Below, piece after piece: positions 2,991 to 9,451 of a stretch of DNA of 13,572 bases. Both the position numbers and the translations under genes were made by a program. Position 1 is the stretch's first letter; every line of letters begins with the position of its first letter. Source of the stretch: a virus; the UHGV virus genome UHGV-1746862. One strand, written 5' to 3'. The notes below the pieces were generated by a model. That model did not search any database and was not told where the DNA came from. It saw nothing but the letters and a program-made list of their open reading frames with translations.

Positions 2991-3085
2991 TTGACACTGG
3001 TTTTTAGATAGATTAAATTACACATCAACGGGGAGGGAATGACCTTCCCCACTAAGTAAAGTCCTTAAACTAGGAGATTCAAAAA
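2991..3085 (+). promoter_or_regulatory. Type B cassette
   Basis: TTGACA 2991-2996; TAAATT 3014-3019; stem GGGGAGGG 3030-3037 / CCTTCCCC 3043-3050; CTAGGAGATTCAAAAA then ATG at 3086. Confidence 0.6.
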
Positions 3086-3289
3086 ATGGCTATTATTAAT
3101 GATTTAACCATTGAAACTACACACATCAAAGATATCAAAGTTGGCGATATAGTCCTTTCCCACGGCGTAGAAAAAACTGTCACTGCAAAGGATATCAAAG
3201 AGGATTCTTTCATGGGTAGGACTCTCTTCGGTGATTCTTATTGCTTAGGCTATCTTGCAGTTTTAAAAGTTGTCAAAAATAACAAATAA
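3086..3289 (+). CDS. Hypothetical protein (67 aa)
   Basis: ORF with cassette RBS; starts MAII like the gene at 520. Confidence 0.65.
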   Translation: MAIINDLTIETTHIKDIKVGDIVLSHGVEKTVTAKDIKEDSFMGRTLFGDSYCLGYLAVLKVVKNNK

Positions 3290-4552: not shown

Positions 4553-4643
4553 ACAAGCCTGATAAAAATCTGTAAATTGTCAATCAACGGGGAGGGAATG
4601 ACCTTCCCCACTAAGTACAATCCTTAAACTAGGAGATTCAAAA
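4550..4643 (+). promoter_or_regulatory. Type B cassette
   Basis: TAGACA 4550-4555 overlaps stop TAG 4550-4552; TAAATT 4573-4578; stem 4589-4609; CTAGGAGATTCAAAA then ATG at 4644. Confidence 0.55.
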
Positions 4644-4985
4644 ATGGCTTATGTAACCGTAATTACCGATAAAGAAAATTCATCTTGGTCAACTCAAGTA
4701 AGTGATAAGATGTCACCTATGCAGTGCCTAAAATACTTTGAACAGTGGAACAAAGGCGAGGACACAAGCCCCTTTCAAGTGATGCAGATTATCCATGTAG
4801 ATAACGAAGGGAATAAAACGGTTTTAAATAGTGAGTACTACGCAAGCCTTTTTGAAACGAGAAGTAAAACAATGAAGCTTTTACGTGAATCCGGTTATGC
4901 CCATATCGCCGCGTTAATCTGGGATGACCTGCTAAAAAACCAACGTATCAGCTATGTAAAACCTGAAAAAATATTCATCAGTTAA
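4644..4985 (+). CDS. Hypothetical protein (113 aa)
   Basis: ORF with cassette RBS. Confidence 0.7.
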   Translation: MAYVTVITDKENSSWSTQVSDKMSPMQCLKYFEQWNKGEDTSPFQVMQIIHVDNEGNKTVLNSEYYASLFETRSKTMKLLRESGYAHIAALIWDDLLKNQRISYVKPEKIFIS

Positions 4986-5115: not shown

Positions 5116-5208
5116 TTGCAATCAGCTATCAAAACAAGTAAATTACTAATCAACGGGGAGGGAATGACCTTCCCCACTAAGTAAAATCCTTAAACTAGGA
5201 GAGTCAAA
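5116..5208 (+). promoter_or_regulatory. Type B cassette
   Basis: TTGCAA 5116-5121; TAAATT 5139-5144; stem GGGGAGGG 5155-5162 / CCTTCCCC 5168-5175; CTAGGAGAGTCAAA then ATG at 5209. Confidence 0.55.
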
Positions 5209-5739
5209 ATGAACAAGTTTAAAGCTATCAACTTCATTCGTTCAAATGCTGTAATGTCTAAGCCTGTAAAAGATACATATGAATTTCGTTGTAATGGGGT
5301 ACACTTTGCAACCATCACTAAGTCAGAAAACGGGGCTTATTATGTACATCGTCGTAATGTTGCAACCGTTGTAGTCTCTCACTTTATGCAAGCTGTAGCG
5401 GAATTATTACCGTTATTCTTAGAGATTTACTTAGATGAGTGTAAAAACGTTCACAACCACGTTAAAAACCTTTTAAACGGTTATAAAATGGCTTATGAAC
5501 GTTCTATCAAGTCACTAAACAAGTTTTACAATGCACCTGCAAATACTGTTTCAATGGCTTATGATGTAAACGGTGAGTTAGTTAGTCTCTTTAAAGTGGA
5601 AGAAATTAAACTGTATAATCTACGTCCTAGTGGTTACTCTAAGACTCTTGGTGAAGGTTTAACGTTCAATATCAAGAACTTAGAAAAAACTTTAAAAGAT
5701 ATTGAAAAAGATATTGACGAGACACTTAAAAGTCTGTAA
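5209..5739 (+). CDS. Hypothetical protein (176 aa)
   Basis: ORF with cassette RBS; its last codons and stop contain the promoter of the next cassette. Confidence 0.75.
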   Translation: MNKFKAINFIRSNAVMSKPVKDTYEFRCNGVHFATITKSENGAYYVHRRNVATVVVSHFMQAVAELLPLFLEIYLDECKNVHNHVKNLLNGYKMAYERSIKSLNKFYNAPANTVSMAYDVNGELVSLFKVEEIKLYNLRPSGYSKTLGEGLTFNIKNLEKTLKDIEKDIDETLKSL

Positions 5740-5806
5740 ATTGTCAATCAACGGGGAGGCGATAACCTCCCCACTAAATAAAACCCTTAAACTAGGAGAT
5801 TCAAAA
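5714..5806 (+). promoter_or_regulatory. Type B cassette, promoter embedded in the 3' end of the upstream gene
   Basis: TTGACG 5714-5719; TAAATT 5737-5742 overlaps stop TAA 5737-5739; stem GGGGAGG 5753-5759 / CCTCCCC 5766-5772; CTAGGAGATTCAAAA then ATG at 5807. Confidence 0.55.
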
Positions 5807-6055
5807 ATGGCAACTATCCGCGCTACTGTTAACGAGTTCGGTTTTTCCTCTCTGGATGTTAAATTTGACATTGCAGGCACTGATAACGCCTTTGAAATGG
5901 TGAAATGTCTTATCAGTCAGACCATCAAAGATTATAATCCTTCGGATGAGTTCTGGGAGGAAACAAAACAAGAAGTTCTCAAGGATGGTTATACTTATCA
6001 CTATTGGGGAGAAAAAATCGTCTCCCTGTACTACAACAAACAAGATTATAACTAA
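5807..6055 (+). CDS. Hypothetical protein (82 aa)
   Basis: ATG at 5807 with cassette RBS; the track's 5702 start is an in-frame extension running through the cassette and is rejected. Confidence 0.7.
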   Translation: MATIRATVNEFGFSSLDVKFDIAGTDNAFEMVKCLISQTIKDYNPSDEFWEETKQEVLKDGYTYHYWGEKIVSLYYNKQDYN

Positions 6056-6065
6056 TCGACGCAGC

Positions 6066-6117
6066 GGGGCTAAATAGCCCCAGATACCTGAACAGCCCCT
6101 TAAAATGGGGCTTTTTT
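6066..6117 (+). terminator. Two consecutive GC stem-loops, the second a canonical intrinsic terminator closing the rightward array
   Basis: GGGGCT-AAAT-AGCCCC 6066-6081; AGCCCC-TTAAAAT-GGGGCT 6094-6112 followed by TTTTT 6113-6117. Confidence 0.6.
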
Positions 6118-6560
6118 ACGTCTATGTAATAGCCTCTATTCAATCCTTTTCCTTTCCTTTCCAGAATCTATCCCACTGATTCAATAGAATCTTATCAGAC
6201 CTTAAAAGCAATAACTCTATAGTCTACTCTATAACCTCTTATCAAATCAACTTAAATAAAAGCCAATAACCCCAGAAAGGGGATGGCCCATTTAAACGCT
6301 CTATAAAGCTCTATAACAGCCTTATCAACCTAACTTAAGGGATTGCATTACCTCACCCTAAAAAGCCCTTTATAAAGCTTCCCAGAGACTTAAAAGAATC
6401 TTATAAGGGTGTAAGCTTTATCATCTCATTAGTATTCTTGTGAATATCTAAACAACCCCTTGATAGTCACTAAAAAGTATGTTATAGGGGCTTTAAAGTT
6501 ACTTTGAAGTAGCTTAAAAGTTACGTAAAAGAGGCTATAAAGTTACGTAAATGCTAGCCC

Positions 6561-6661
6561 CCTTAACATTCTCTTAACAATTTCTTAACAATCCCTACAT
6601 AGTTATGCTTTTAAGGCACTTGTTAGCAACTTGTTAGTCCCTTGTTAAATCTCTGTTAAGA
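6561..6661. repeat. Head-to-head sub-array: three CTTAACA sites, then four TGTTA(G/A) sites in the opposite orientation, each set at exact 11-bp spacing
   Basis: TAACA cores start at 6564, 6575, 6586; TGTTA cores start at 6621, 6632, 6643, 6654. Confidence 0.7.
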
Positions 6662-6863
6662 CCACGTAAAAGCCTTGTAAGAGTCTTTGACATAGCCTTA
6701 AAAGCTCCTGTAAAGCCCTATAAAGAGCTATCTGTACAGTTGGGGGATAGATACTAGGAAGAGACTTAAAAGAGCTTACAAAGAGCTATAGAGAGCTTTT
6801 AAGAGGGCTATTTAGAGAATCACTAAGAGAGAAAGGGAACGATAAGACCAGAGATAGTGACCA

Positions 6864-7140
6864 TGTTAATAGCTTGTTAAAAAGATTAAACACTTGTTAG
6901 AAACTTGTTAATTATCTTAACAAAATAACTCTTTAAAATTAACTTGTTAGCTCTTGTTAATCATCTGTTAAGACTCTGTAAAGACTATTCAGCACTTGTT
7001 AGAAAACTGTTACAGCCTTGTTAGTTCTGTTAAGAAACTGTTAAGACCTTTGAAGAGTTGTTAAGAAGGTGTTAGAACTGTTAAGAGATTGTTAAGGATA
7101 TTTTAAAATTTTGCAAAGTACTTGTAAGGGAGCTGTTAAG
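6864..7140 (+). repeat. Tandem array of about 17 TGTTA(A)G-family sites, mostly phased at 9-11 bp
   Basis: TGTTA cores start at 6864, 6875, 6895, 6906, 6945, 6955, 6966, 6997, 7008, 7019, 7028, 7039, 7059, 7070, 7079, 7090, 7134; one inverted copy (CTTAACA) at 6916-6922. Confidence 0.7.
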
Positions 7141-7429
7141 GGCTACCAAGCAGATATACATCCTAATCAGATATTTTTGAGTTCCTTCAAAGACCCTAAA
7201 AAATGACTTGACAGTCCTATTTTATAAAAATTTTAAGATTCTGAATAATTACCTATACAGCCTTTTAAAAATACAGGTAATAACAGGCTTATAAGATACC
7301 TTGTTAGTACCGTGTTAGACCTTGTGAGATAAGGCCTGTAAAGATATTCCTGTTAAGTTTATTAAAACAGTCTATATAGAGGCTTAGTAATACCTAGTGA
7401 ACACCTATAGAGAGTATCATAGCTGACAT

Positions 7430-7635
7430 AGAGATTAAGAGGTGTATAGGAGCTTCTAAGAAGGTGTAGAGGGATGGTTAAGGTGATTGTATAGGTTGTT
7501 AAGAAGGCTTGTTAGAGGGCTTGTTAGAAGGGTTATACAGAGGGGCTATTAAGACCACTAGATAGTTACTAAGATACTATATAGTACTATATAACTATAT
7601 AGAGAGTAAGATTAAGAAGGTTGTTAAGAAGGATA
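7430..7635 (+). repeat. Cluster of longer motif variants ((C)TTGTTA(A)GAAGG, AAGGTGTAGAGG)
   Basis: TTGTTAAGAAGG at 7496-7507 and 7621-7632; CTTGTTAGAGGG at 7508-7519; CTTGTTAGAAGGG at 7520-7532; related GGTGTATAGG / AAGGTGTAGAGGG at 7440-7473. Confidence 0.55.
7575..7602. repeat. TATA-rich palindromic cluster
   Basis: Perfect 12-bp palindrome TACTATATAGTA at 7575-7586; three CTATATA(G) copies at 7577, 7587 and 7595. Confidence 0.6.
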
Positions 7636-7690
7636 GATATTTTGTTCACATATGATGGTGACCCAGAGGTTGGGACAACCGATAAAATTT

Positions 7691-7723
7691 TATAAAAGTA
7701 AAAAGCCCCCAATTAAGGAGGCT
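7691..7723 (-). terminator. Putative intrinsic terminator closing the leftward gene cluster
   Basis: On the minus strand, AGCCUCC-UUAAUU-GGGGGCU (7 bp stem with one G-U pair) followed by UUUUACUUUUAUA, just past stop TAA 7735-7737. Confidence 0.55.
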
Positions 7724-7734
7724 CTTAAGATATT

Positions 7735-8358
7735 TTAAATCAGTGTTTCCAGAACTGTTTTTAATGATGACTTGGTTGTCTGATAAAAATGAGTAAATCC
7801 ATTATTGTTATCGAATATCTGCATCATAACAGCATCTCCCTTGATTGGGTACACTCGGATATCATAGTGAAAACCATTAAAGACACAAGAGCCATTACAG
7901 AATGCACTAAAGTCATCCACTGAGATATACTCTTCATGCCCTGTGATTTTTATACAAACACCTTTACTCGGTCTCTTAGGGTTGATATCTTCCATCACAG
8001 ACATACTCTGCCCACCAAGAGATACCATAGTGACCACTTTACGGTTCTTCTGTTTAAAGTACATCTTAACTTTCTGTAAAGTGTCTTCATAGAACGGGTA
8101 AGACCTTTCTACAAAGATTCCTTCAAGTGGCTCTTTACCATTTTCAACTTCTCTGTTATGCCGTACTGCAAAGATAATTTGTTCGAACCAGTCAAGATTT
8201 TCTTCGGAGAGTGCTTCTCGAACATCACTCCAGTCAAGTACTAGGTAGTTACCTTCAACTTCTTTTAAGTTATCTTTTTCCATAGATATCACACCATTAT
8301 CGTAAAACTTGATATTCTGGTACTGCGAATTTATTACTATTGTTCTTGATGAGGTCAT
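7735..8358 (-). CDS. Hypothetical protein (207 aa; possibly starts at the internal ATG 8283, giving 182 aa)
   Basis: Long ORF; the first 62 nt overlap the upstream gene in another frame; no clear SD before ATG 8358. Confidence 0.65.
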   Translation of the reverse strand: MTSSRTIVINSQYQNIKFYDNGVISMEKDNLKEVEGNYLVLDWSDVREALSEENLDWFEQIIFAVRHNREVENGKEPLEGIFVERSYPFYEDTLQKVKMYFKQKNRKVVTMVSLGGQSMSVMEDINPKRPSKGVCIKITGHEEYISVDDFSAFCNGSCVFNGFHYDIRVYPIKGDAVMMQIFDNNNGFTHFYQTTKSSLKTVLETLI

Positions 8359-9226: not shown

Positions 9227-9451
9227 CTACTCAGACTTTTCAGTCTTCTTATCGGATTTCTTACTAGTCTTCTTCTCAGCTTTCTGTTCAGGCTCCTTCT
9301 CAGAAGTTGCCTTGATAACCATATCAAGAAGCTCTGATAAGTCACTCTTCAGCAAAGTAACAGGCTGCTCGTTGTAGAAGTTTTTGTCAAGATAAACTTT
9401 GAACTCTTCTATAGAAGGAAATCCAAAAATTGGTACAGGTGTCTTAATCAT
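9227..9451 (-). CDS. Hypothetical small protein (74 aa) with Lys/Glu-rich C-terminal tail
   Basis: ORF with GGAGAG 8 nt upstream of ATG 9451; C-terminus EKEPEQKAEKKTSKKSDKKTEKSE. Confidence 0.6.
   Translation of the reverse strand: MIKTPVPIFGFPSIEEFKVYLDKNFYNEQPVTLLKSDLSELLDMVIKATSEKEPEQKAEKKTSKKSDKKTEKSE

Follow-up and report, generated by a model that had tools for sequence, protein, structure and literature searches.

The locus

The DNA analysed here, a stretch of 13,572 nucleotides from UHGV virus genome UHGV-1746862 (referred to below as the window), carries two opposed sets of short repeats built on the heptamer TGTTAAG, and the position, context and possible role of these repeats are the subject of this work. 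By sequence identity, the window is a segment of a Felix O1-like myovirus (genus Felixounavirus, subfamily Ounavirinae) spanning the concatemer junction; it is 90-94% identical to Felix O1-like myoviruses and 93.8% identical to the phages KhF1/KhF2, the phage type being that of a lytic, virulent myovirus. A 1.6-kb stretch free of open reading frames (ORFs; 6143-7735) separates a rightward from a leftward, convergent block of genes. It is the largest non-coding stretch of the genome, and both flanking gene blocks are closed by terminator-like hairpins, as judged from a terminator scan and the ORF list. The non-coding region is present in full length in more than 200 deposited Felix O1-like genomes and is partly kept in Erwinia phages, and the existing annotation in deposited records consists only of 'repeat_region', 'terminator' or short hypothetical ORFs. 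As outlined below, the opposed repeats almost certainly sit at a boundary of the direct terminal repeat (DTR) of the virion DNA. The features on which this argument depends are the following (coordinates in the window, strand, description and basis).

6557-7147, plus strand: DTR of the virion DNA, 591 bp, assigned from exact terminal redundancy in the genome records E9, CRP22 and NBEco004, run-off sequencing of UAB_Phi87 and SpeI fragment arithmetic
6562-6590, minus strand: first set, three inverted heptamers CTTAACA (complement of TGTTAAG) at 11-bp spacing; motif search and shuffles
6594-6606, plus strand: CCTACATAGTTAT, a conserved spacer that separates the opposed sets, with conservation of at least 90% in a 25-sequence alignment
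6610-6660, plus strand: second set, one degenerate unit (TTTTAAG, 6610) and four direct TGTTAR heptamers (R standing for A or G) at 11-bp spacing; motif census and shuffles
6862-7140, plus strand: principal direct array, situated in the right half of the DTR, with 16 forward TGTTAR sites and a single inverted one (6916-6922); motif census
7134-7162, plus strand: longest highly conserved block in or beside the DTR, spanning the right boundary 7147/7148; conservation profile
7148-7700, plus strand: unique non-coding flank just inside the left end, with conserved AT-rich blocks; motif census and conservation profile

The opposed heptamer sets and the array they belong to

A first-pass annotation, made from the letters of the window alone, had described three inverted sites facing four direct ones, each set at an exact spacing of 11 bp, and both the positions and the spacing are correct. 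CTTAACA lies at 6562-6568, 6573-6579 and 6584-6590, and TGTTA(A/G) starts at 6621, 6632, 6643 and 6654; the pattern CTTAACAN4CTTAACAN4CTTAACA and the four-site direct pattern each match once in the window and in none of 200 dinucleotide shuffles (0/200 each), which is far beyond chance. The two sets thus exist as described, but they are only a corner of the feature, namely the edge of a 31-site array extending over about 1.1 kb. In the ORF-free region (6143-7735), the census of TGTTAR counted 27 forward and 4 inverted sites (31 in all), compared with 10 forward and 12 inverted sites in the other 12 kb, and of the heptamer TGTTAAG itself the two strands together hold 17 copies, where 3.75 +/- 1.78 would be expected; 15 of these 17 lie within 6562-7628.

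Running mostly in one orientation, the TGTTAR array fills the DTR and 500 bp inside it, with the opposed sets as its outer edge. The last forward heptamer of the main array (7134-7140) ends 7 nt before the right cut, and seven further forward sites follow in the flank just inside the left end (7302, 7313, 7351, 7497, 7510, 7522 and 7622). The consensus of the sites is (C/T)(T/C)TGTTA(A/G)(G/A)A; between neighbouring forward sites a spacing of 11 bp is the commonest (10 of 26 intervals), the remainder being 9-13 bp or larger gaps. In the complete 87.7-kb genome of E9, pairs of TGTTAR sites 11 bp apart are confined, with one exception, to the terminal regions. A hairpin or cruciform across the orientation switch finds no support, the DNA fold of 6550-6670 having an energy of -9.1 kcal/mol (z = -1.4) that was equalled in 17 of 200 shuffles; with this z value the locus does not belong among the cruciform- or hairpin-forming inverted repeats.

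The direct terminal repeat and its physical ends

Three genome records from independent sources carry an exact terminal redundancy, of 580 bp in E9, 579 bp in CRP22 and 628 bp in NBEco004. They share the left boundary ...AAATGCTA/GCCCC(C)TT(T)AACA... (GCTA/GCCCC..., the slash marking the cut) and likewise the right boundary ...TGTTAAGGGCTACC/AAGCAGATATAC... (...GGGCTACC/AAGCAG). Both boundary sequences are held verbatim by the window, which reads ...AAATGCTA/GCCCCCTTAACA at 6556/6557 on the left and TGTTAAGGGCTACC/AAGCAGATATAC at 7147/7148 on the right, and its DTR is therefore placed at 6557-7147. Further genome records start or stop at window position 6557 or 7146-7147. The terminal overlaps of MET-P1-301, KMM2, PC79-13 and mistaenkt (43-545 bp) were left out of the placement of the cuts, because they represent assembly artefacts or imprecise ends.

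An experimental determination exists for UAB_Phi87, whose DTR was found to be 608 bp long by Bal31 digestion and run-off sequencing (PMC4837284) and, according to Fig. S1 of that paper, starts with AACATTTTCTTAACAATT... and finishes with ...GGGATGTTAAGGGCTACCAA (...TGTTAAGGGCTACCAA). This run-off DTR aligns to window positions 6565-7149, in agreement with the boundaries given above to within 8 nt on the left and 2 nt on the right. Bal31 was further shown to degrade two SpeI fragments of UAB_Phi87, of 4322 and 2819 bp (PMC4837284); the SpeI sites flanking the region in this genome (13014 and 19582) lie 6568 bp apart, compared with 6533 bp predicted from the two fragments minus the 608-bp DTR. 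For Ro111lw, a DTR of 613 bp was found by PhageTerm, and the large terminase of UAB_Phi87 and Felix O1, a protein whose gene falls outside the window, is reported to cluster with DTR-generating terminases (PMC4837284). In the relatives, the same sequence is found at both genome ends with fixed boundaries, as in short exact, non-permuted termini of the T7 type, and in UAB_Phi87 the fixed ends are seen as exonuclease-sensitive restriction fragments.

With the left boundary at 6556/6557, the three inverted heptamers begin 5 nt inside the left physical end and occupy nt 6-34. Read inwards in the 5' to 3' direction, the left terminus begins with GCCCCCTTAACA... and the right one with GGTAGCCCTTAACA...; the word CCCTTAACA recurs in mirrored orientation at the two DTR boundaries, on the inner side of the cut and 6-8 nt from it. 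The boundaries can also be read as direct repeats, with GCTA at either cut, or as mirrored through CTW/G, but both of these similarities are too short to be relied upon.

Conservation in related phages

The region was aligned among 22 Felixounavirus sequences and three sequences from Suspvirus and Mooglevirus, the latter being about 76-81% identical here; 24 of the sequences were scorable for spacing. Without exception among these 24, which represent three genera, neighbouring sites of either set are 11 bp apart. The relatives differ in copy number by complete 11-bp units, with two to four copies in the inverted and three to six in the direct set; between the opposed sets lie 24 or 35 bp (25 bp in a single relative), so that the gap, too, shifts by one 11-bp unit. 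The heptamer cores are better conserved (0.955) than the spacers (0.88), with a register-shift control reaching its maximum when the shift is zero. This pattern fits putative protein-binding sites. It had been proposed in the first-pass annotation that the arrangement is not a simple satellite, a view that loss of spacing or orientation in close relatives would have contradicted; no such loss was seen among the 24 relatives of three genera, in which orientation, 11-bp spacing and inter-set phase are kept, and the proposal can be retained.

In Erwinia Kolesnikviruses the flanks no longer align, yet the architecture of the end persists. The only BLAST match of the window to Erwinia phages covers 7036-7160, and the conserved block 7134-7162 at the right boundary is still recognisable in them. 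One Erwinia record begins with CCACTTTTACATTTCGTTAACA..., that is, with a longer inverted run of TTAACA type, and then switches to direct TGTTAA units.

A further record, PP079183.1 (Erwinia phage vEam_W_25), finishes with ...GCGGCCAC, followed by nine last bases, AGATCGGAA, which are the start of an Illumina adapter. The end ...GCGGCCAC is homologous in position to the right end in Felixounavirus, and the adapter remnant directly after it therefore marks the physical right end of the vEam_W_25 virion DNA. The terminal redundancy of this record (410 bp with 6 mismatches) is imprecise at the left end, and only the adapter-marked right end was used.

A putative role in packaging or terminus generation

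Drawing on the analogy with other phage termini discussed at the end, we favour, with moderate confidence, the reading that the heptamers may serve as phased sites at which the packaging or end-processing machinery binds, with a role in packaging or in the generation of the termini. A sequence-specific packaging or end-processing protein, either the DNA-recognition function of the terminase or an accessory protein, would assemble on the heptamers; once bound, it would direct cleavage of the concatemer to the two DTR boundaries and initiate packaging. Since CCCTTAACA is mirrored at the two boundaries, the change of orientation at the left edge leaves the two termini with identical site geometry, as would be needed by a model of opposite-strand cuts followed by duplication of the repeat.

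A more specific version, which we regard as rather improbable, would make the arrays the assembly track of a dedicated sequence-specific end complex, both boundaries being set by the mirrored CCCTTAACA. Such a complex might be built by the product of 7735-8283, the first gene inside the left end, which is Whirly-like by fold similarity alone and gave no significant Foldseek hit, or by an unrecognised DNA-recognition subunit of the terminase; opposite-strand cuts would be made 591 bp apart and the repeat would be duplicated by strand displacement. If this were true, Felix O1-like phages would offer a tractable system for the still unsettled generation of short DTRs, and a telomere-like nucleoprotein end would be present in a lytic myovirus.

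Several observations weigh against a role of the heptamers in packaging or terminus generation and should be kept in mind. The annotation of the related genome E9 contains no small terminase subunit, and the ten flanking proteins gave no Pfam match and fall only into PHROG families of unknown function. The similarity between the mirrored boundaries is short (CCCTTAACA plus CTW/G), the distance from cut to site differs between them (6 vs 8 nt) and the resemblance is weaker in Erwinia phages. A long-range helical register of 10.4 bp (R = 0.74) beats a uniform null, but reaches only p about 0.10 under a cluster-preserving null; we do not claim such a register, because it is not significant once local clusters are preserved. 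The termini of the phage in the window we infer from the identical boundary sequences in relatives. Finally, we know of no established function of the heptamer arrays of T7 itself, with which the present array is compared below.

Alternative explanations

Among the alternatives, one would keep the binding sites and change their partner: an end-binding, telomere-like or ejection-related phage or virion protein, and not the terminase, would occupy them, and would guard the ends from host exonucleases or organise the first or last DNA passing through the portal. We consider this unlikely, since protection of the ends would not require arrays that, on one side only, run 500 bp past the DTR. The Whirly-like product of 7735-8283 is no strong candidate for this part either, its assignment being one of fold similarity, and Whirly proteins are known to bind single strands with little sequence specificity.

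An origin of replication, with the heptamers as iterons for an initiator, has in its favour that repeated, phased and oriented sites stand beside conserved AT-rich blocks (7097-7118 and 7217-7236) within the largest non-coding stretch of the genome, and a bidirectional origin was one of the two functions suggested in the first-pass annotation. We judge it improbable. The orientation switch coincides to the nucleotide with the packaging cut at the left boundary of the DTR and not with an AT-rich unwinding element, and cumulative GC skew tracks gene orientation only. Typical iteron sets consist of few copies of 17-22 bp, unlike the 31 units of about 11 bp spread here over 1.1 kb. Although AT-rich blocks do exist, the remaining hallmarks of an iteron-type origin, 17-22-bp iterons beside an unwinding element and an initiator gene, were not found: no initiator gene was recognised among the neighbours, and 30-40 kb separate the region from the primase/helicase and polymerase genes.

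Transcriptional control, by promoter-like sites or by an operator array titrating a regulator of the flanking convergent blocks, would be welcome insofar as the regulation of transcription in Felix O1 is left unexplained in its genome paper and a related genome encodes a protein annotated as transcriptional regulator. It appears quite improbable, however, because both gene blocks lie upstream of the region, which is bounded by two terminators; moreover, sigma-70-like matches occur at chance level (7 vs 5.8 +/- 3.0 expected), and a scan of 5900-7900 against Rfam gave no hit other than a sub-threshold chance match.

The changes by whole 11-bp copies between close relatives are what replication slippage or unequal recombination would give, and could suggest a functionless satellite which happens to sit at the end of the genome. 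This is very improbable in view of the conservation described above, with cores conserved above spacers and a register control peaking at zero shift; orientation, spacing and inter-array phase are, in addition, kept across three genera at about 76-81% identity, an equivalent orientation switch occurs in Erwinia phages whose flanks no longer align, and clustered, phased arrays are confined genome-wide to the terminal region.

A two-armed partition centromere (parC/parS-like), the other function proposed in the first-pass annotation as part of a symmetric complex, is as good as refuted by the context. Short repeats in opposed arrays with helical spacing do bear a superficial likeness to parC of plasmid R1, but the sites coincide with the virion DNA terminus of a virulent myovirus and not with a plasmid or prophage replicon, neither the ten flanking proteins nor the annotated relative yielded a recognisable ParM/ParA or ParR/ParB, the cognate NTPase and binding protein of such systems, and the relevant symmetry is the one between the two DTR boundaries and not a local one.

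Neighbouring repeats and further observations

Around the features discussed so far, the following were noted (coordinates, strand, description and basis).

6094-6112, plus strand: terminator-like hairpin at the end of the rightward small-gene block, left limit of the ORF-free region; terminator scan and ORF list
6117-6556, plus strand: unique non-coding flank just inside the right virion end, with CTCTAT and TAAAAG/TAAAG-type units in one orientation; k-mer enrichment and E9 genome map
6489-6556, plus strand: a 22-bp repeat in roughly three copies, the last of which stops exactly at the left cut; Tandem Repeats Finder (TRF; period 22, 2.9 copies) and conservation profile
7701-7726, minus strand: terminator-like hairpin at the end of the leftward gene block, right limit of the ORF-free region; terminator scan

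The 22-bp repeat, which carries two perfect TTACGTAA palindromes (6521-6528 and 6543-6550), lies just outside the DTR and is a candidate for a second recognition element. In its last copy, AAAGTTACGTAAA (6539-6551), holding one of these perfect palindromes, is invariant in all 25 aligned sequences. In the right-end flank as a whole (6117-6556), the motif census found no TGTTAR site. A second family of repeats in one orientation (CTATAAAG, CTTAAAAG and CTGTAAAG) fills 6117-6556 and also the middle of the DTR (6664-6860); in Erwinia Kolesnikviruses, the equivalent flank (Erwinia phage Roscha1, 2080-2380) holds arrays of TTCTAAG instead. The TAAAG core of this second family resembles the CCTAAAG/CATAAAG units of T7, which may be coincidence.

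Just inside the left copy of the DTR, a highly conserved AT-rich block is found at 7168-7240 (AGATATTTTTGAG...TTGACAGTCCTATTTTATAAAAATTTTAAGAT), which could be an unwinding element or another binding site. A TTGACA at 7208 within this block has no acceptable -10 element on inspection.

Outside the non-coding region, a cassette of about 80 bp (AATCAACGGGGAGG..CCTTCCCCACTAAGTAAA.TCCTTAAACTAGGAGATTCAAAAATG) precedes five rightward small genes (2148-2227, 3014-3096, 4572-4649, 5137-5218 and 5736-5806). Each copy has a GC hairpin and, behind it, the same ribosome-binding region, and the cassette may be a shared leader or regulatory module of presumed early genes. On the other side, a 12-bp tandem repeat (CTTCTCAGCCTT; 5.7 copies, 63% matches, 9236-9303) lies within a minus-strand ORF (9227-9451).

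It should also be noted that Felix O1-like sequence, 90-94% identical to the window, is found inside the record GU169904.1, named 'Staphylococcus phage SA1', and in an 88-kb contig of a 'Methanobrevibacter gottschalkii' assembly. Its presence in a staphylococcal phage record and in an archaeal one is most likely due to contamination or chimeric assembly.

What the array adds to the published terminal repeat

The DTR as such has been published, and in the accessible parts of the UAB_Phi87 (PMC4837284) and Ro111lw papers only its length and sequence are given. The papers on Felix O1, wV8, the Danish wastewater phages and PhageMaP/Bas63 contain no discussion of the array or of an origin, and a full-text literature search for TGTTAAG returned unrelated matches only. 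The internal architecture, comprising 31 phased heptamers, the switch at the left cut, the mirrored words and the variation by whole units, therefore appears to be undescribed.

Felix O1-like phages are widely used in typing, biocontrol and therapy directed at Salmonella and E. coli, and hundreds of their genomes have been deposited, many of them opened at arbitrary positions and with the terminal region labelled 'repeat_region' or filled with spurious small ORFs. GCTA/GCCCCCTTAACA and TGTTAAGGGCTACC/AAGCAG mark the true ends and provide a simple rule for orienting and annotating these genomes, a rule resting on three records and one experimental determination. For phage engineering, it should be considered that insertions in the terminal region could affect packaging. 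A phased, copy-variable array with an orientation switch at the cut is, moreover, a concrete and mutable cis-element, on which the finding and duplication of ends by the terminase of DTR phages can be tested; even for T7, the mechanism of end duplication is only partly worked out.

Comparison with known systems

The pac sites of SPP1 and P22 consist of phased short repeats flanking the terminase cut, which are thought to be bound by, or wrapped on, an oligomer of the small terminase. Phased short repeats flank the cut in the present case as well, which we understand as a functional analogy and not as membership, given that SPP1 and P22 package by headful and have permuted genomes, whereas Felix O1-like phages have fixed ends (Bal31 and run-off sequencing).

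In cosB of phage lambda, the R-sites of gpNu1 lie beside the cosN cut, at least one of them being inverted, with a bend site for integration host factor (IHF) as conserved spacer between them. The likeness consists in several short repeats immediately inside a cut end and in the spacer CCTACATAGTTAT, which separates the opposed sets here. Lambda differs in having 12-nt cohesive ends and no DTR, and three R-sites as opposed to 31 sites; as neither an adjacent Nu1-like gene nor an evident IHF consensus was found here, this comparison, too, is one of analogy only.

The closest analogue is the concatemer junction of T7 and T3, and Felix O1-type DTRs have been described in the literature as T7-like. 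As in the present phage, the genome is non-permuted, with a short exact DTR in a mostly non-coding junction, and in T7 as well as here a single heptamer recurs in many copies, both inside the DTR and in the adjoining unique DNA. The retrieved ends of T7 hold 13 copies of CCTAAAG, which lie on either side of the 160-bp DTR as well as inside it and share one orientation; these arrays are reportedly those named SRL and SRR by Dunn and Studier in 1983. The T7/T3 junction carries pac signals, and the phi-OL and phi-OR promoters are involved in T7; as the annotation of the related genome lists no phage RNA polymerase gene, an involvement of such promoters is without counterpart here. The two systems further differ in the heptamer (CCTAAAG in T7, TGTTAAG here) and in the length of the DTR (160 bp compared with about 590 bp), and T7 shows no orientation switch at the boundary, the switch and the strict local spacing of 11 bp being features of the Felix O1-like junction. 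The published DTRs of UAB_Phi87 (608 bp) and Ro111lw (613 bp), finally, are the same element as the one described here.
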